This document shows, piece by piece, positions 21,001 through 64,000 of a DNA stretch of 64,000 nt (positions within the stretch are counted from its first letter, which is position 1; each line of letters opens with the position of its first letter). The stretch comes from a virus. Taxonomy: Duplodnaviria > Caudoviricetes. The DNA lies in IMG/VR virus record IMGVR_UViG_3300035498_000877, positions 32,001 to 96,000 of that record. One strand, given 5' to 3'. Position numbers and translations under genes: made by a program. The notes beneath the pieces are model-generated. The model ran no database searches. It saw only the letters and a list, made by a program, of their open reading frames with translations, and was not told the origin of the DNA.

Positions 21001-21436
21001 AGTTGGTAAATTGTTTGATGGAAAGTATAATGAAATGATAAAACATTATACTGATTTATGGTACAATGAACAAATCGACTGGCAAGATATGAGAACTACT
21101 GAAGGACAGTTAAAATACATTAGAGAAAAATTTGGTGTTAAGAAATTGAAAAAGATTCCTAAGGATATAGTTGCATATATTCAAATTGAAACTGAAGCAA
21201 TTGAAACATCAAATGATAAAATGATGATTGCTTCTTATTGTTTATCTAAATTGGAGATTGTTGAATGGTATATCGAATTGATAGATACAGATAATAAGAA
21301 GTATATAGTTCCACATACACGTGCATATCTTGTTGATGTTAGAACTCAATTACTGAAATGCTACAAAGAAATTATGGATACTAAGATTGATAAGAATGCT
21401 GGTAAAATAAAAGTAAGTGATGAGTATTATATTTAA
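18089..21436 (+). CDS. Large virion/internal head protein with duplicated internal module
   Basis: 1115 aa; two modules beginning F(N/D)E|KSHGKLK; located in the head cluster. Confidence 0.65.
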   Translation: MAKSKGLVKDVFMTDLPEDIQYIITDVNKMISNIIDNTLNNKKAYDDLKSSSWAMSCLKDFKTAPSAKGDVGSARIYKRGNKYDTMIQVTGHFRNHQYGWIEELLHDFVRDVHQSVKTEVRKRHKLTIKDEGTGGDSNEGFDLYLSNKQSKELWDKFEDRKAKFISESFDLIDSDDEDDDITNFNEKSHGKLKFDYRKGYDVDTGHKIMIVYSLDNINITFPGHAHGLDYSDVKDKLDDPEIQKLNREAEQNIAKKGNLDHQSYGQKILAIKDLVTNKTLKSCRYVGLFDPDHKHPEAMKLTDEQIKYAQSHFHIFSIKVGDVETEDQKNFKSSKAYKMNIVGNDNLNEPKITIGEKHLKSGRGAKLDDIDPTKKPITYNHPSAKDLKKNPDHYTKEDVDLILDAINSQAFNNEEFDEKSHGKLKYSFRMSVNYKNGHFIKIVFDLKPEDISQVGTFDDQDYKNFNSFLKDKEIIKNINKNGSTNFSGTGTVMGIVDMDTHENLKTVSTIGILGGSQTTFEKYLPKSKYYDRSKNNFGEYLRADREKIAAELNLNPPDAITYTVGEKCKVPVYRSTLASNTINAVFNNEHSPYGKGVKGGSYPKSSVIKSNNWHGRNSDISVNTAIKQLEKEFDNVKAIATKYPDLQGDVDKVEKDFDYVKKEISKNVDEKYGQSISNPTYKYYHYYLKNDIDNLKLSINHKKGIWESIDINLYEKDNIDFEESADNSPAVHNQGKRMLAALSKEYIGENAKKINQYGANTFANIITKNLLPSWGGAFRKLSIQIDTKSNGIVEFKIPTMSIDFISRYINGREPLEAFLHRVPEIKIRMSADVFNTMKDPNDAYNFFLAAVKYYDIKVNKYANKLMAEAMRMDTAMKHLISTTKLSGLVSYSLQLLFIFDKVDMSNNKTFEIDKSDIDTVNKFFRNIYTSYADPEKEKNKVLKDLKDMVSSLTESCEWDDNIKTISYLPEEVGKLFDGKYNEMIKHYTDLWYNEQIDWQDMRTTEGQLKYIREKFGVKKLKKIPKDIVAYIQIETEAIETSNDKMMIASYCLSKLEIVEWYIELIDTDNKKYIVPHTRAYLVDVRTQLLKCYKEIMDTKIDKNAGKIKVSDEYYI

Positions 21437-34035: not shown

Positions 34036-35199
34036 TTATATTTCTAAATATTCTAAATCATTTTCATGAATTAGCTCATAAATATAATTATAAAATTCAG
34101 GATCATCTTTTTTAATATTTTTAAGTTTCTTTTTAAAATTCTTATATTTATCATTTTCTGATATTTTAGAATGACATAATTCTATATCTACATATGGTTC
34201 AACAAAACCTTTCACCATATAATATATATCACAGTGATTTAGATTGCCCATGTATGATTCAATAGCTCTAGCATCAATTAATCGGATTCTATGATTTTTA
34301 TTAATTGTCATTGCTCTTCTAGTAAATCTCAGCATTGTTGATTTTCTAAGTTCTGTTCTATCCCTAAAAAATCTAAACCCGATAAAATCAAGATCTCTAC
34401 CATAATGAACACCATTTTGAATATAATCAAATCTAAATAATTGATAATTATGCTTTAATTCTAAATGTAAATTATCTTTTACATAATCTTGTATATTATA
34501 AAGCACATTATGTAATTTATATTTATTAGAATCAAATAAAGCCATATCATCCATAAATCTAGCATAGTGAGTAACTCCACACACTTCTTTAATCCAGTGA
34601 TCAAAATCTTGCATATAAAAATTAGCAAACCATTGGGACGTAAAAAAGCCTAATGGGAGACCATGATCTATGGTCCCCAATATGGCTTTAATCAATCTTA
34701 ATACTTTTGCATCTTTAATTTTAGTAGCTAATTTTTCATATAATATATCTTGATCAATAGAATCAAAGAAATGATGTATATCCATTTTAACACAATATTT
34801 TACATGCCGTGGGTCTTCTTTTATCCATTGTTTTATCTTTTTAGCACATTTATGTTGTCCTCTTCCAGGAATTGATGCATATGATAATTCATACATCTGA
34901 GACATTAATACAGGCATAATAGCTTGTATTAACATATGTTGAATTATCAATTCCATATATGTAGGAATATAAAGTTTTCGTTCTTTCTTAGTAGTTGGCT
35001 CAAATATTATTATAGCCGTATGTTCCTTAGGTTCATATGCTTCAGCATATTCAACTATTATAGGATAAAATGTATCAGGGTCATCTAAGATTTTTTGTAC
35101 TGATTCTCTGTCTCTCTTACGTTTTGAGGAATTTTTAATAGCTAATAATACATTCTCATAGCTAATTAAAGTATCCCATAAATTTTTATATGTTTTCAA
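34036..35199 (-). CDS. brt: DGR reverse transcriptase
   Basis: KMDIHHFFDSID, GLPLGFFTSQWFAN (DGR-type SQ), YARFMDD, LDFIGF; adjacent TR. Confidence 0.95.
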   Translation of the reverse strand: MKTYKNLWDTLISYENVLLAIKNSSKRKRDRESVQKILDDPDTFYPIIVEYAEAYEPKEHTAIIIFEPTTKKERKLYIPTYMELIIQHMLIQAIMPVLMSQMYELSYASIPGRGQHKCAKKIKQWIKEDPRHVKYCVKMDIHHFFDSIDQDILYEKLATKIKDAKVLRLIKAILGTIDHGLPLGFFTSQWFANFYMQDFDHWIKEVCGVTHYARFMDDMALFDSNKYKLHNVLYNIQDYVKDNLHLELKHNYQLFRFDYIQNGVHYGRDLDFIGFRFFRDRTELRKSTMLRFTRRAMTINKNHRIRLIDARAIESYMGNLNHCDIYYMVKGFVEPYVDIELCHSKISENDKYKNFKKKLKNIKKDDPEFYNYIYELIHENDLEYLEI

Positions 35200-35375: not shown

Positions 35376-35485
35376 TTTAGGAGAGCCGCCGTAGTTCCAG
35401 TTCGAGTCAGAAACCACACCAGAGAGATCCACGCACACCAAGCCCACATGAGACTCATTGTTCGTGTTGCCACCAAATTTCGCGA
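35376..35485 (-). repeat. DGR template repeat (TR)
   Basis: 110-bp ungapped match to 35994-36103 with 13 mismatches, all at adenines of the TR sense strand. Confidence 0.96.
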
Positions 35486-35969: not shown

Positions 35970-37493
35970 CTAAGCTGTCTTTTTAGGTAAACATTTAGGA
36001 GAGCCGCCGTAGGCCCAGAACGAGGCAGAAACCACACCAGAGAGATCCACGCACACCAAGCCCACAGGAGACTCAACGCTCGTGTCGCCACCAAAGGCCG
36101 CGACATCTACTTGAGAGTTGTTAAACCAAGCTCCAGATGTATAATAAGTTGACGCACTACCAGATACCTCTTTAATGAATATACCATTTTCAGTAAATGT
36201 CATACTCTTTAGATAACCACCATTAGTACCAGATGGTGTAGAACCAATATTAATATATCCATCACCAGTAAAGTTATATCCTTCTACTGTACTACCATCT
36301 TCGGTACCATAAGTAAGTTTTACTAACTGAGTACCTTTATTATTTATTAATCCATACATCCATCTCCATATATTACCCCAGAAATTCTCAATACCAAATA
36401 TTTTAACACCTGATACATTATCTGTTGTACCCCAGAATAAACCTTTTTGATCCATAGTACCTGATTTAATTTGTCCAGTATTAGAAGTAGATTTATAAGA
36501 ATTATTATTACCTCTACCAAATGCTGTTTTAGAATCAGTAGTCTTGCTAATTAATAGTGATAATAGTACTATTAATAACCAATCACTATATGTATTCATA
36601 CTCCATATATTGTCACCATTTTGATTATTTGCAGCTGCATATTCAGCAGTCTGTGTTGCATTAATATAATTGGCTACTGATAAACCGCTGATAGATCTTA
36701 ATACACTATCTACATTACTACCATCATATGCTGGCATATACATATATGGTACTTCATCGCCATAATTGTTTATATGAGCCCATGCATGATAATTAGTATC
36801 TACTTGTTTATTTGATATATAAACATTTACACTATCATCTGTTTGTAATACAAGTTTAAAATATACCTTTGGTATACCAACCATTACATTACCTGCAACA
36901 GTAGTATCTGAATTATATGCATCCTCTCCACTAATAGTTTTAGTATAATCATTTGGATCTAATAGATATGCCTCAGTACCATCATAATTCAACATGCATG
37001 GTCTAAGATTCTTTATAAAGAATGCATTACCCCAATCACCATAATCAAATACATCATTATCATAATCCATATGTGCTGCAGTATAATTTGTATTTTGGCC
37101 AATATATGATATCATACTATTAGGATCAGATGTCGATTGATTAAGATTGAATCCATATATTTCAGCATCCCTAATAGTTACTGTTCCAGTGTTTGAATCA
37201 CTATTAACCTCGATTACCATTTTGCTAATTAAATCATTGAACATTGTAGAAATATAATCATCTAATCCCAAATTATCCCTACCAAATTGCTTCTCTTCAT
37301 CAGTCAAATTTTGTTCTTCTGTAACATCTAATGCTTTATAATTTTCCACATTATCCAATCCAATATCGGATTTAGTAATATTATGTGGATTTGATGCTTG
37401 TATATGTTTTTCTATTCTAGTCTTACTATCCTTTTTACTTAATTTAACTAAATCACGAATTGAATTGGTACCAATATACTTATTATTACTCAT
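35970..37493 (-). CDS. DGR target protein: putative tail fibre/receptor-binding protein with C-terminal CLec-like domain
   Basis: NPHNITKSDIGLDNVEN fibre motif; FGIENFWGNIWRW (Mtd/FGE-like CLec motif); VR in the final codons. Confidence 0.9.
   Translation of the reverse strand: MSNNKYIGTNSIRDLVKLSKKDSKTRIEKHIQASNPHNITKSDIGLDNVENYKALDVTEEQNLTDEEKQFGRDNLGLDDYISTMFNDLISKMVIEVNSDSNTGTVTIRDAEIYGFNLNQSTSDPNSMISYIGQNTNYTAAHMDYDNDVFDYGDWGNAFFIKNLRPCMLNYDGTEAYLLDPNDYTKTISGEDAYNSDTTVAGNVMVGIPKVYFKLVLQTDDSVNVYISNKQVDTNYHAWAHINNYGDEVPYMYMPAYDGSNVDSVLRSISGLSVANYINATQTAEYAAANNQNGDNIWSMNTYSDWLLIVLLSLLISKTTDSKTAFGRGNNNSYKSTSNTGQIKSGTMDQKGLFWGTTDNVSGVKIFGIENFWGNIWRWMYGLINNKGTQLVKLTYGTEDGSTVEGYNFTGDGYINIGSTPSGTNGGYLKSMTFTENGIFIKEVSGSASTYYTSGAWFNNSQVDVAAFGGDTSVESPVGLVCVDLSGVVSASFWAYGGSPKCLPKKTA
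35994..36103 (-). repeat. DGR variable repeat (VR)
   Basis: Encodes AAFGGDTSVESPVGLVCVDLSGVVSASFWAYGGSPK versus TR AKFGGNTNNESHVGLVCVDLSGVVSDSNWNYGGSPK. Confidence 0.96.
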
Positions 37494-37563: not shown

Positions 37564-39804
37564 TCATTGATTATCTACATATTTAGCTAGTGCTGCACAT
37601 TCCAATAGTTTTAATTCATACAACTCATTATCATCTATTACCAATAAAGCCCAATCATCTGGTACATTATTTATCCTTGGTATAAGATTAAAAGATTCAT
37701 ATTTCAAATATAAATTATTCCAATAATAAACATTAGCTAGTGCCTCAGCAATCATTTGTATACATGTGAATGTTGCTTTCTTATTTGGAGTTCCAAATAC
37801 TGTATGACCTAAGGCTGAACATGAAGCACAATCATTTCCAATTGGACAATCAAAACAAATATCATTAGTCTGAGATCTTCTAGTAATTGAATCGAGTAAT
37901 TTTAATACTTCTGAATCTTGTTCTCGTCCAACTAACCCATCATCAATATTTCCAATGCATAGATCTTTAACATCATTTCCTACAGATGTTGGCATATACC
38001 TGATACATGGATAGAATTGTCCATTAGGTCTTAATGCTAACATTGATCCAGTACCTCCACAGAAATTAGAATCATTATGTTTTGCTTCTTTATCCTCCTG
38101 CTTCTCATTAAATATAGATATATAAATATGCTCTAGATTATTAGATATTAAATATCGAGCAAGTTTCTTTAATTGATAATACTCAGTAGCTGCAGTATCT
38201 CTAGTCCATCCTTCCTCAAATACACAATTCATATTTATACATTTCATGTCATTCTTAATAAAGTCTACTACTGAATCATATAAATACATTATATTAGATG
38301 GAGCTAATGTCATCTTAGAATTTCTTTCAGAAGTATAATTCTTATTATAATGATTTAATGCTGCTATATCAATATCATATGATCCTTCTCCATTAGGTTG
38401 TATTCTACAAGAATCATGCAATTGTTTATTTCCATCTATTGATATATTGAATGAAATATTATGTGCATATTCTTTGAAGAATTCTTGTACTTCATCATCA
38501 AAATATTGCATACCATTAGAGCATATAGATAATCTATGTAAAGCAAACCAAGGATGATTTAATTTATAACACTGATCCAAAAAATATTCATAGATCTGTT
38601 TAATCAATTCAATTTCCAATAATGGCTCTCCACCAATAAATTCAATAATAATTGCAGGTGAATTATATCTATTTATATATCCATATTTATCAGCTAATAG
38701 ATTATCTACGAACTTCTTTGCAGTATCAAATGACATTCTATCATTAGTCTTATTAAACTGATAGCAGTATGTACAATTATGGACCACTGCATTATTAGCA
38801 ATATATGTATGACAAGTAGTTGTTAGATTACAAACAGTTCCAGAATCACATGCTTCTAATTTTTCAATCATAACACTATTGCTGGGGACGATCTGAATAC
38901 GTTTATCTATCAAGAAAACAAATAAATCATTATCATCTATAATTTGTTTAAATGGTTTAAATTCTCCATTTGAAGTTAAGAATGGATGATCATCTGTAAC
39001 TCTAAATAATTCTCTTCCTGAAGACTTGTCCTTCACAATATTTAGTGGCTCATACATACGCCACATATTTGTCACTATATATGGCTTAAAGTATTTGAAG
39101 TCATGATATTTTTTAGCATCACTTTCATCAATACCTAAAATTTCATCTCCACAACTAATATCTTCTATATTCTTTTCTGTCCAGTCAGCCATCAGAATTT
39201 TAGTTCCCATAGCAAAACAATTCAAAGAACATCTTTCAGTTACTTGGAAAGTAAAATTATGACAGAATACATCAGCATCGTCACCGCATCCAACTTGATC
39301 TTGTCTTTTATTTGAAAATAATTCTGGATATGCTTTAGCAATTGCATTATTATATGAATCAGTAGTAAATCTGAAATACTGATCTGGAAATATATCTAAT
39401 ACATCATTATCTGGTATCAAATTATCAACTGTTTGTAAAAATTCAACATCATCAGATAATAGTAACATCTTATATTTGCAATACATTGTATCGATTTCTA
39501 CATTCTGGATCAACATATCTTTGATTGGCATATCATTATTTTTAGATACTGATTGCAAAATATCAATTGCTATATTAGAAAACATTGATCTGAGCTGCAT
39601 ACTAGATTCAGTAAATTCTTTTCTCAAATCCGGAATCTTATCTAAATCATAATTGTGTTTAACCATATATTTCATTCTAAACAATAATGCGTCAATTTCA
39701 AGTGATAATCTATCTAATCTGTAATCTTTGTATTTCTCTAATACAAATTTATCAAATTGAACTTTGTATAATGTAATATCTTTTTCTAATAAATGAGTTT
39801 TCAT
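37564..39804 (-). CDS. Radical SAM/SPASM peptide maturase (CXXX-repeat-target-like) with intein
   Basis: TFQVTERCSLN|intein|CTYC gives CxxxCxxC; FIGGEPLLE, HPWF, ISIDG; SPASM CGG..FYPC..CFDC..CASC..C; ANVYYWN. Confidence 0.88.
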   Translation of the reverse strand: MKTHLLEKDITLYKVQFDKFVLEKYKDYRLDRLSLEIDALLFRMKYMVKHNYDLDKIPDLRKEFTESSMQLRSMFSNIAIDILQSVSKNNDMPIKDMLIQNVEIDTMYCKYKMLLLSDDVEFLQTVDNLIPDNDVLDIFPDQYFRFTTDSYNNAIAKAYPELFSNKRQDQVGCGDDADVFCHNFTFQVTERCSLNCFAMGTKILMADWTEKNIEDISCGDEILGIDESDAKKYHDFKYFKPYIVTNMWRMYEPLNIVKDKSSGRELFRVTDDHPFLTSNGEFKPFKQIIDDNDLFVFLIDKRIQIVPSNSVMIEKLEACDSGTVCNLTTTCHTYIANNAVVHNCTYCYQFNKTNDRMSFDTAKKFVDNLLADKYGYINRYNSPAIIIEFIGGEPLLEIELIKQIYEYFLDQCYKLNHPWFALHRLSICSNGMQYFDDEVQEFFKEYAHNISFNISIDGNKQLHDSCRIQPNGEGSYDIDIAALNHYNKNYTSERNSKMTLAPSNIMYLYDSVVDFIKNDMKCINMNCVFEEGWTRDTAATEYYQLKKLARYLISNNLEHIYISIFNEKQEDKEAKHNDSNFCGGTGSMLALRPNGQFYPCIRYMPTSVGNDVKDLCIGNIDDGLVGREQDSEVLKLLDSITRRSQTNDICFDCPIGNDCASCSALGHTVFGTPNKKATFTCIQMIAEALANVYYWNNLYLKYESFNLIPRINNVPDDWALLVIDDNELYELKLLECAALAKYVDNQ
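38776..39219 (-). mobile_element. Mini-intein (148 aa) within the radical SAM Fe-S motif
   Basis: Begins CFAMGTKILMAD, block B VTDDHPF, ends YIANNAVVHN, +1 Cys; too short for an endonuclease domain. Confidence 0.93.
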
Positions 39805-57359: not shown

Positions 57360-59225
57360 CTATACATATGCTTCTACAGTTTCTTGATGTGAGTTATCAA
57401 CATCTGGGTCCATTACTATACATTGATTTCCTGAGATAAGGATCTTTACTAATTCAGAAGCAACTGTCAATACCATTACGTCAGTTTCAGCTGATGTTAC
57501 AATATTTTCATTGTACTCTAATGTCTCAATATCAAATACTTTCATACTCTTAATAGACTCTAAAAGTATTTCTTCTTTCTTTGCATTAGCTTCTTTATTT
57601 AATTCAGGAAGTCCTTCCTCAGTTGTATATTGCCATCTTGGAATCAATTTATGTATTCCTAATCCATCTGGACCACGAAGTACTTTTATGTATACCAACT
57701 CACATGATTTGACAATCATTTCTAATATCATAATCTCCAATATAACATCTTCTGGTATTTCACTATTTTGTGAATTATAATAAGATTGTAATTCTAATAT
57801 ACGATCAGTAGCTGCTTTTATTATACTTAACTGGCATCCTGGTACAATACCATACTTTATGGCTGATCTGATACACTTGATAACATCTTCAACTGAATCC
57901 CATATAATATTTTTCTGTAATGAGCTATCAGCTCCTATATAATAAATATATGTATTTAAATGAAGTTTCATGACTCTAGCATTAGCTTTATATATCTTTT
58001 CAGAGAATGATTGTCTTTCATTGTCTGTCTGAGATTCAATATCGCTAAGATCTTGATTAGCCCTATTGACAAGATCTTTATATCTGTCATACTCAAATAT
58101 ATCATCATCTGGTTTAAATATAGAACCATTATTACATGTCAACATAGCTGATTTAGCATGACATATTAATTGATATAATGGATATGTTTCATCTTCTAAT
58201 ATATTTTCAACCATCGTATCTGATCCATCTGCATAAATAGATGCTGTCATTTCTGTTGCTAAACTTTGTGTTATTACTTTTCCTTTTAATATAACAGCGA
58301 GATCACCAAGATCATTATCATCTACTTTAGACCGTAAATACTGAGCTGATATAAGATTTATATTTCCTTGTCTGAATTCTATAGTTGTATATTGCTGCAA
58401 TATTGTTTCACACATTAATACATCATACTGAGGAGCAATAATCAATAACTTAGATCCTTTAGCTTTCAATACTTCATTAATCTTAAATATGACATTCTGC
58501 ATGAAATCTGATTCTAATTTATGATCAAATATCATCACATAAATATCTGATTCTTCTGTACTTAAGTCTTCATTCTTTACATATGCATCACTAATTAAAT
58601 TAGCTGCAAAATCATACCCATCAATCTTCTCAACATATGATTTATTTGTAGGAGAATCTTTCTGTTTAATTGAAGGAGAAGCTGTTTCCTTGTATATATT
58701 AGCAATATTCTCACTTATCTCTTTATTACCATTACTAGAAACATATGCTAAATTATAAATAGTATCACTATCTAAATCAATTGGTTTAGAATAATCAGAT
58801 ACTCTATCACACAAATCTTTTACAACCTTATCCCAAGTATTTATAAATTGCCTTGGTAAACGGTATGAAGCATATATCTTATCTTTGCATGATTTATAGG
58901 TAGAAAATAATGCATCAGTCAATGCAATAGCTGTTGTAGTTCCATCACCTACAGTATTATTCATTTTGGTACATGGTCCCATTATTAAATTCAATATCAT
59001 TCTCTTATACTTATTATGAAAACGATAATTCTTTAATATTGAATATCCATCTTTAGTAGCTTCTGTCAATGATCCATCTAGTATAGTAGCTGATGATCCA
59101 AGTGGTCCAAGTGATTTAGATAAATTTGTAGATATTACATTGAATACTTCTTGTACCAATCCTTCAAACTCAGCTTGGGGGATAATGTTACTCTGTGTGT
59201 CATTTGAATATTTTAAAAATTCCAT
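57360..59225 (-). CDS. groEL: GroEL-like phage chaperonin
   Basis: SLGPLG, TKDGYSI, VGDGTTT, SSNGN, VEDVI..A...GIVPG motifs. Confidence 0.9.
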   Translation of the reverse strand: MEFLKYSNDTQSNIIPQAEFEGLVQEVFNVISTNLSKSLGPLGSSATILDGSLTEATKDGYSILKNYRFHNKYKRMILNLIMGPCTKMNNTVGDGTTTAIALTDALFSTYKSCKDKIYASYRLPRQFINTWDKVVKDLCDRVSDYSKPIDLDSDTIYNLAYVSSNGNKEISENIANIYKETASPSIKQKDSPTNKSYVEKIDGYDFAANLISDAYVKNEDLSTEESDIYVMIFDHKLESDFMQNVIFKINEVLKAKGSKLLIIAPQYDVLMCETILQQYTTIEFRQGNINLISAQYLRSKVDDNDLGDLAVILKGKVITQSLATEMTASIYADGSDTMVENILEDETYPLYQLICHAKSAMLTCNNGSIFKPDDDIFEYDRYKDLVNRANQDLSDIESQTDNERQSFSEKIYKANARVMKLHLNTYIYYIGADSSLQKNIIWDSVEDVIKCIRSAIKYGIVPGCQLSIIKAATDRILELQSYYNSQNSEIPEDVILEIMILEMIVKSCELVYIKVLRGPDGLGIHKLIPRWQYTTEEGLPELNKEANAKKEEILLESIKSMKVFDIETLEYNENIVTSAETDVMVLTVASELVKILISGNQCIVMDPDVDNSHQETVEAYV

Positions 59226-63438: not shown

Positions 63439-63463
63439 ATAATATATTATTAAAAACAATGTA
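63439..63463. repeat. 25-bp element identical to 43595-43619
   Basis: ATAATATATTATTAAAAACAATGTA. Confidence 0.65.
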
Positions 63464-63590
63464 TTTTCACAATACAAATTTTTAAATATTAAAAATATTA
63501 TAATTACATCTAATGGAATATGACATAATAGCCTAATATTTTTGATAAAATAACTTTATAACATTTTAAAAATAGAAGGGAGAAACTATT

Positions 63591-64000
63591 ATGAGCAATA
63601 AGTACTTGGGGGGGGGATTCCCAGATTAAAAGCCTAATACAAAATATAATAAAAAATGTACCACGTGAAGAATATAGTGGTGATGATATTAAAAAGATGC
63701 GAATGCAAACGTGTAAACATGAAAATCTAATATATCAATATAATAATGATGCAACATGTACTGAAGATGGTACTGAGGATGAGATATGTAATGAATGTGG
63801 ATATACAGAAACAAAAATTAAAGTAGGATCGGCTTTAGGTCATATTTATCCATCTGAGTGGACTATCAGTAAAGAAGCTACTTGTGAAGAAGATGGTATA
63901 AAAATAAAAGTATGTACTAGATGTGGTAACGATCAGATTACTGATACTATTTTTAAATTAGGGCATAGTTATCCTGATGATTGGACTATAGTAACACCAG
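63591..64000 (+). CDS. Frameshifted gene for a Cys-repeat (ATCTEDG-type) surface/fibre protein; runs off the window
   Basis: RBS GAAGGGAG and ATG at 63591 give MSNKYLGGGFPD*. The +1 frame after the G9 tract is open to the window end and encodes DATCTEDG..CNECG..ALGH / EATCEEDG..CTRCG..LGH repeats. Confidence 0.7.
63608..63616 (+). repeat. G9 homopolymer tract (candidate slipped-strand or frameshift switch)
   Basis: Nine consecutive G residues in codons 6-9; G8 or G11 restores the frame. Confidence 0.75.

Follow-up and report, generated by a model that had tools for sequence, protein, structure and literature searches.

A poly-G tract in a jumbo phage gene is probably one of five contingency switches in a putative tail-fibre family

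Introduction

Why would a phage gene that has a Shine-Dalgarno-like sequence and an ATG come to a stop after 12 codons, when a long open frame runs on directly behind a run of nine guanines? We address this question for a locus at the end of the window, the 64,000-nucleotide stretch of DNA analysed here, which comprises bases 32001-96000 of one 289,234-bp contig with 29.8% G+C (window position 1 is genome position 32001). A preliminary description read the locus as a poly-G switch operated by phase variation or ribosomal frameshifting, in a gene sharing its N-terminal motif with the target of a DGR, and saw in the two genes a two-tier system of diversification. Genes for a tail sheath and for virion proteins are present in the window as well, and the 289-kb genome that carries it is that of a jumbo myophage. 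Among its other genes is one for a phage-encoded GroEL-like chaperonin (57363-59225, minus strand; phrog_5725, 4.7e-69). Family members are referred to below by genome coordinate; other positions are those of the window unless marked as genome positions (Table 1).

Results

The ribosome binding site, the ATG, the MSNKYLG peptide, the G9 run and the stop at codon 13 that the preliminary description claimed can each be read at the focal locus. With nine G's the ATG opens onto 12 codons only; with eight or 11 it is joined, as had also been claimed, to an intact frame of 568 or 569 codons, which the tract thus gates. This +1 frame is open from 63595, leaves the window and ends at genome position 97298. 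It was searched for ATG, GTG and TTG ahead of 63697 and none is present, and gene callers placed the start of the focal gene at the ATG there or at the next one (P0274, 531 aa; P0048, which starts MQTCK). Slipped-strand contingency loci are recognized by a homopolymer or short repeat of at least about seven nucleotides inside an ORF or promoter and by changes of its length that turn a full-length product into a truncated one and back; the focal gene has both the homopolymer, as G9, and the switch of product. An alternative genetic code was considered and rejected, because every premature stop is TAA and table 11 gives a dense set of ORFs.

Table 1. Coordinates of the focal locus, its gene family and associated elements. 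Positions are window positions unless marked as genome positions; sister contigs are from other assemblies.
Feature	Position	Strand	Description
Class B leader (copied)	63441-63590	+	common to focal gene and 260826
Shine-Dalgarno-like sequence GAAGGGAG	63575-63582	+	read from sequence; ends 8 nt ahead of ATG 63591
Short frame, G9 state	63591-63629	+	ATG, 12 codons MSNKYLGGGFPD, then TAA 63627-63629 as codon 13
G9 homopolymer, proposed slippage tract	63608-63616	+	exactly nine G after codon 6 (MSNKYL)
Start of gated body frame	63617-64000, on to 65298	+	remainder of head DSQIKSLIQNII.., then Cys-rich beta-hairpin stalk
First start codon of body frame	63697-63699	+	ATG; product of 533 aa without head peptide
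Focal gene	genome 95591-97298	+	G9 at 95608, G9 in sister contig L007; OFF; in frame at 8, 11
Gene 21359	genome 21359-22645	+	G9 at 21379, G9 in sister contig L010; ON; in frame at 9, 12
Gene 107775	genome 107775-109136	+	G9 at 107792, G9 in sister contig L009; ON; in frame at 9, 12
Gene 260826	genome 260826-262132	+	G10 at 260844; OFF; in frame at 8, 11
Gene 281598	genome 281598-282889	+	G11 at 281615, G11 in sister contig L015; OFF; in frame at 9, 12
666-aa gene, no tract	genome 99353		reads MSKKYAGENSI
Split family member, no tract	genome 167685-169189 (L006:1685-3189)		91-aa head ORF MSNKFIGTNSI... and 391-aa lectin-body ORF
DGR target, no tract	35970-37493 (start 37493)	-	507-aa tail protein, phrog_5302; starts MSNNKYIGTNSIRDLV; head reads MSNNKYIGTNSI
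DGR reverse transcriptase	34036-35199	-	Pfam RVT_1, 8.6e-17
TR	35376-35485	-	
VR1	35994-36103	-	110 nt, 88% identity to TR; all mismatches at TR adenines
Dead mini-gene (remnant)	genome 109216-109315 (L003:3216-3315; window 77216-77315, past window end)	-	
Class A leader, 90-128 nt			ahead of 21359, 107775, 281598, 99353 and the remnant at 109315
Third leader			ahead of DGR target and 167685
Lectin-like phrog_5302 tail-protein body			in 21359, 107775, 281598, DGR target and 167685
Peptidase_G2 / pre-neck-appendage body			in 260826 and 99353
Inverted repeat, 262 nt, 3 mismatches	genome 95949-96210 (window 63949-64210)		nt 359-620 of focal gene
Partner copy of repeat	genome 1-128 and 289145-289234	-	in second stalk gene

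Is the tract a matter of chance? The contig contains exactly five G runs of at least seven nucleotides (9, 9, 9, 10 and 11) and none of 7-8, while the expected number of runs of at least nine is 0.013 from base composition and 0.025 under a first-order Markov model; the tract is thus not a product of chance. All five runs are G on the plus strand, follow codon 6-7 of paralogues beginning MS(N)K(K)(Y/V)L, and are followed in the productive frame by GG(G)(S/D)..KSLI. The focal run is, as the preliminary description had it, the longest in the window, and its four counterparts elsewhere in the genome lie at the equivalent position of paralogues. The genome search that it recommended, for further MSxKY(I/L)G starts and further G tracts, returned the five tracts and a shared N-terminal head in eight genes plus one remnant (five with the tract, three without). 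The picture of one poly-G switch is therefore correct in that the tract gates a frame, but the focal gene is not alone: it is one of five. The only C7 run of the genome (genome 151070-151076) reads AGGGGGGG on the minus strand, 7 nt before an ATG, where it falls within the Shine-Dalgarno region and is not coding.

What is retained at this position is the homopolymer and not the glycines that it encodes. GGG is the rarest Gly codon of the genome (3.7%), and GGG-GGG accounts for two of the 206 Gly-Gly pairs in long ORFs. At the position of the tract the paralogues without poly-G read GTN or GEN, GTN being the form in the DGR target where the poly-G genes have GGG, and remote homologues write their N-terminal Gly runs in mixed codons. 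Retention of a tract against composition and codon bias, a further hallmark of contingency loci, is thus seen here. The frames behind the tracts are likewise intact, over 428-569 codons in the five genes, and the three genes that are out of frame have open frames of 434-568 codons without a second lesion; the probability of about 430 open codons arising by chance at the composition of the genome, computed from base frequencies, is about 1e-16.

The family combines a common head with different leaders and bodies. The motif that the preliminary description thought common to the focal gene and the DGR target is real, and it extends across all eight genes and the remnant. Over 123 nt, the leader of the focal gene is 96.7% identical to genome 260708-260830, and the 260826 locus has the same ribosome binding site at the same spacing. 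We claim no promoter there, since sites from a sigma-70 scan were no more frequent in the focal leader than in shuffled sequences. Three unrelated types of distal body follow the heads, namely the lectin-like phrog_5302 body, the Peptidase_G2 fibre and the Cys-stalk adhesin; paralogue matches range from 1e-27 to 1e-78 for the phrog_5302 tail protein and reach 3e-40 for Peptidase_G2 / pre-neck appendage, and the focal body is unique within the genome. In the split member at 167685 the body ORF begins 53 nt downstream of the head ORF, and this may be a broken gene, possibly an interrupted one.

Does the length of the tract change in the DNA? Within the genome, the genes 107775 and 281598 share every nucleotide for 115 nt upstream of the tract and for 87 nt downstream of it; the tract alone distinguishes them, being G9 in the first and G11 in the second. 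Between assemblies, the contig L019 from another JGI sample aligns with the reference over 5006 nt with no mismatches and one gap, and this gap is the tract of 260826, which is G9 in L019 and G10 in the reference; both lengths are OFF there, and both are consensus calls from short-read metagenomes, in which homopolymer length is least reliable. The other four loci show no difference in tract length between assemblies, and the focal locus is an out-of-frame G9 in both. As the lengths G9, G9, G9 and G11 are reproduced, random errors of assembly do not explain them. The sister samples carry adjacent JGI identifiers and hold essentially one strain (99.95-100% identity) and are thus weak replicates. 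Logan contigs of SRR11792166 and SRR11792608 cover the neighbouring gene and end 136 nt upstream of that gene, about 58 nt before the tract. We note that at G9 in L019 a TTG ending in the tract (L019:2614-2616) falls in the body frame, and a gene caller began a 429-aa product there; this start is probably not real, being separated from the ribosome binding site by about 24 nt, and it illustrates how such genes are mis-annotated.

What does the tract of the focal gene control? The focal body consists, in order, of a Cys-rich stalk, an Ig-like domain, a Listeria-Bacteroides repeat (Pfam Flg_new, 2.5e-14) and a C-terminal beta-sandwich, the last three of which lie beyond the window. An AlphaFold model built with 31 homologues (mean pLDDT 83) is all-beta and resembles beads on a string, and its Foldseek matches are to the InlB B-repeat, to a sialidase CBM (carbohydrate-binding module) and to Ig/cadherin strings; by this model the body looks like an adhesin. 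No match to the body was found among PHROG profiles. The first 33 residues are modelled with low confidence, the head peptide at a pLDDT of about 30, and this says nothing either way on docking. From the modularity of the family we infer that the shared N-terminal peptide may anchor the fibres on the virion, as the preliminary description supposed.

More than 40 homologues of the body occur in other large phage contigs, and in these the stalk always stands behind an N-terminal domain of about 70 aa of a different type. The preliminary description had asked whether homologues begin at the equivalent of the ATG at 63697. They do not: they lack MSNKYLG, but they carry this other domain ahead of the Cys-rich stalk, and for this reason a headless product from that ATG is unlikely to be the functional form. 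The head itself appears confined to this genome in the searches made. A scan of viral contigs and of metagenome contigs for the DNA pattern of the cassette gave no match; a search of viral contigs for related loci with the focal body as query found no relative; the same search with the 21359 protein found two distant loci only, aligned from residue 40 on and with no G runs; when the first 45 residues of the 21359 paralogue served as query, a word-based search returned only proteins of this genome; an exhaustive HMMER search returned 1466 relatives of the body, none carrying the head; and blastn against a phage collection gave nothing beyond 140 nt matching the tail spike of a Flavobacterium phage. 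A related jumbo-phage contig (L013) has a similar head of the non-poly-G kind, MTETKKFLSLNSIRSFI, with no G run of at least seven.

In remote homologues a short N-terminal peptide is often followed by a Gly-rich stretch, and this suggests that the tract sits in a linker tolerant of changes in length. These Gly runs were considered as further poly-G tracts and ruled out, being written in mixed codons. Two remote homologues of the lectin body, L016:1501-4983 (a contig of NCBI GCA_963629875.1) and L018, have runs of six to seven N-terminal glycines. Behind the L016 homologue stands a gene for a reverse transcriptase, and the association of a lectin-like body with a DGR would thus recur elsewhere.

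Is the same gene both switched and hypermutated? The DGR in the window is intact, with a reverse transcriptase, a TR and a VR with adenine-specific mismatches. Comparison of the TR with the whole genome yielded two matches only, VR1 in the DGR target and a degenerate VR2 at genome 109216-109291. A DGR target is recognized by a 3' variable region that matches the TR with adenine-specific mismatches, and the focal gene has no match to the TR. VR2 differs from the TR mostly at adenines and at a few other positions, and it is part of the dead mini-gene, whose class A leader and ATG..TTGGGGG head (G5) are fused straight to VR2 and the last codons of the gene. This mini-gene looks as though a deletion, one end of which lay in the poly-G tract, had produced it; nowhere else is a head of the poly-G type physically joined to a DGR tail. 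The two-tier diversification of the preliminary description thus exists at the level of the family, which comprises constitutive members, one of them DGR-hypermutated, and switchable members, but not within one gene, since the TR has no match in the focal gene. Adjoining the DGR target is a gene for a 746-aa protein (37567-39804, minus strand) with weak radical-SAM / 4Fe-4S and Hint / intein matches (Hom_end_hint, 5.8e-7, below the Pfam cut-off), which may be an intein-containing radical SAM enzyme.

Finally, a 262-nt inverted repeat links the focal gene to a second stalk gene. The first 52 nt of the repeat (63949-64000) lie within the window. The second stalk gene is on the minus strand and spans the contig ends; its 726-aa product has the other type of head, followed by a Cys stalk and a lectin body. 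In yet another sample, the contig L023 leads from reference position 2336 to position 1, continues through 44 nt that are absent from the reference contig and then runs from 289234 downward, at 100% identity; because it joins both contig ends, the genome is circular or circularly permuted. In the sister contig L007 the poly-G head and stalk are joined to the lectin body through the 262-nt repeat, a junction that reflects either a chimera made in assembly or a genuine isomer produced by recombination (inversion). A reading of it as a module swap between strains is not upheld, because the junction crosses the repeat shared with the second stalk gene and may be chimeric. The reference arrangement, with the focal head on the adhesin body, is supported by L023, and the adhesin body is thus the likely, though not fully certain, distal body under the control of the focal switch.

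Discussion

What, then, does the poly-G tract do? On the anatomy of the locus, the non-random tracts, their change of length in the DNA of the family and the intact frames that they gate, we propose that the focal G9 is probably a DNA-level contingency switch, one of five in a family of tail-fibre or receptor-binding genes whose products we infer to be virion fibres or receptor-binding proteins. The unit would be a head cassette, made up of a copied leader, a ribosome binding site, an ATG, 5-6 codons, Gn and the (S/D)..KSLI peptide, placed on one of three bodies. The replicating polymerase would slip on the G run, so that G's are gained or lost; one length in three would join the start to the body, and the other two would stop after 11-15 codons. 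Each gene would be an independent ON/OFF switch, and with the tract at the 5' end the OFF state would cost a peptide of 11-15 residues only. The sequenced majority would then have two genes ON (21359 and 107775) and three OFF (focal, 260826 and 281598), and progeny would be mixed virions with different sets of accessory fibres, beside the constitutive members without a tract, one of which is diversified by the DGR. Such switching would presumably be both frequent and reversible.

Could the tract act without any change in the DNA? RNA polymerase slippage, or ribosomal frameshifting on GGG codons, would recode the message so that every allele yields full-length protein in a constant proportion, and the tract would set dosage and not an ON/OFF state. 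Homopolymers of at least nine nucleotides are classic sites of transcriptional slippage (Thermus dnaX, Shigella mxiE, IS elements), which makes it plausible for the runs of 9-11 found here, and in both assemblies the focal G9 leaves the body out of frame, as expected were that the functional state. However, a programmed event should keep one geometry across the family, and the five genes need shifts of 0, 0, +1, -1 and -1, which fits a programmed translational shift poorly; neither a single direction of shift across the five paralogues nor, in their AT-rich flanks, a downstream stimulatory structure or an upstream SD-like stimulator is evident, and the lengths of the tracts do change in the DNA. 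Of the two mechanisms offered by the preliminary description, phase variation thus agrees with the DNA-level change of length in the family, and frameshifting does not agree well with the shifts required. We regard recoding as an unlikely sole explanation, and it could also operate together with DNA slippage, so that the OFF states would leak.

Another alternative assigns the tracts no function. Poly-G would have arisen once as a hot spot, spread with a duplicated or converted cassette and inactivated copies, the focal gene being a young pseudogene. A single synonymous change would end the slippage, and the paralogues without a tract show that other residues are tolerated; yet the tract is 9-11 nt in all five live copies despite codon bias and AT pressure, and the OFF genes show no second lesion over 434-568 codons. 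Decay does occur in this family, as the dead G5 remnant (109216-109315) and the split paralogue (167685) attest, three of the five copies are out of frame, and both assemblies show the focal locus OFF. Weighing these observations, we consider loss of function by a hot spot improbable. That the true focal length is G8 and the gene simply intact is very improbable, for even though Illumina consensus is prone to error at long G runs and assemblies break at the head cassette, which is a dispersed repeat, another assembly also gives G9 at the focal locus, distinct lengths are reproduced at four loci (9, 9, 9 and 11), and a systematic error would not leave two paralogues in frame and three out.

We therefore return to the contingency switch. 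An extension of it, which we put forward as a doubtful possibility, is that the cassette may be a portable and self-homogenizing phase-variation module that recombines onto any receptor-binding body, so that five switches (32 repertoires) would operate over a constitutive fibre diversified by the DGR; inversion at the 262-nt repeat might in addition exchange bodies between switchable and constitutive heads, which would bring three mechanisms to bear on one fibre family. If the contingency switch is confirmed, stochastic ON/OFF switching of fibres would be a general bet-hedging strategy of viruses, and a large phage would be able to pair it with targeted hypermutation. There would also be practical consequences. 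In the prediction of host range for phages from metagenomes, out-of-frame fibre genes should not count as pseudogenes, and in annotation it should be borne in mind that gene callers began these genes at internal ATG or TTG codons.

Several known systems resemble this one in part. Poly-G/C tracts near the 5' end that turn surface genes of Neisseria and Haemophilus ON and OFF by slipped-strand mispairing are well known. Similarly, cj1421 and cj1422 of Campylobacter jejuni have G9-G10 tracts near the 5' end and slipped-strand ON/OFF switching, with several loci per genome. Unlike these bacterial contingency loci, the tracts described here are in a virus, are replicated by the phage, and precede putative virion fibres and not enzymes that modify the host surface. 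As in the Bordetella phage BPP-1, with its tropism switching through Mtd, an intact DGR acts here on the C-terminus of a fibre paralogue; however, the focal gene is not its target, and DGR and poly-G are found on different members of the family. The Gin/G system of Mu and the Cin/C system of P1 place alternative C-terminal fibre parts behind a constant N-terminus, and the 262-nt repeat could likewise exchange the bodies of the two stalk genes, with the difference that the alternative junction in L007 may be a chimera.

Among phages, homopolymers that give rise to reversible frameshifts, and thereby to bet-hedging, have been described in T2/T4 and other coliphages (Gomez, Barrick, Waters, bioRxiv 10.1101/2025.10.21.683753). 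The contingency runs of coliphages are mostly short (at least six), occur in all gene classes and are under-represented in tail fibres (bioRxiv 10.1101/2025.10.21.683753), in contrast to the long G tracts described here, which are found only in putative fibre genes. As relayed by the same preprint, Fletchervirus phages have tracts of 7-11 G in receptor-binding protein genes (Sorensen et al. 2021, Cell Rep 35:109214, via bioRxiv 10.1101/2025.10.21.683753; PMC12823448), and judged by that account these tracts are the closest known system. Both cases, so far as it is described there, are myophages of lytic type and low GC with several G tracts of 7-11 nt inside the coding sequence of fibre or receptor-binding genes, putative ones in the present phage, in which the length of the tract sets the frame and mixed progeny are proposed. 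They differ in that the present phage shows no sequence relation to Fletchervirus (blastn against a phage collection), belongs to another host lineage and has a genome of 289 kb, and in that switching is read here from sequence. Fletchervirus genomes are much smaller than this. A further difference is that all five tracts here lie in one copied head cassette on three unrelated bodies, with a DGR on a paralogue. To our knowledge, Campylobacter phages are the only ones in which experiments have shown poly-G to switch receptor-binding proteins. Here what is probably the same device occurs in an unrelated and uncultivated jumbo phage, in a cassette copied five-fold and alongside a DGR that acts on a paralogue.
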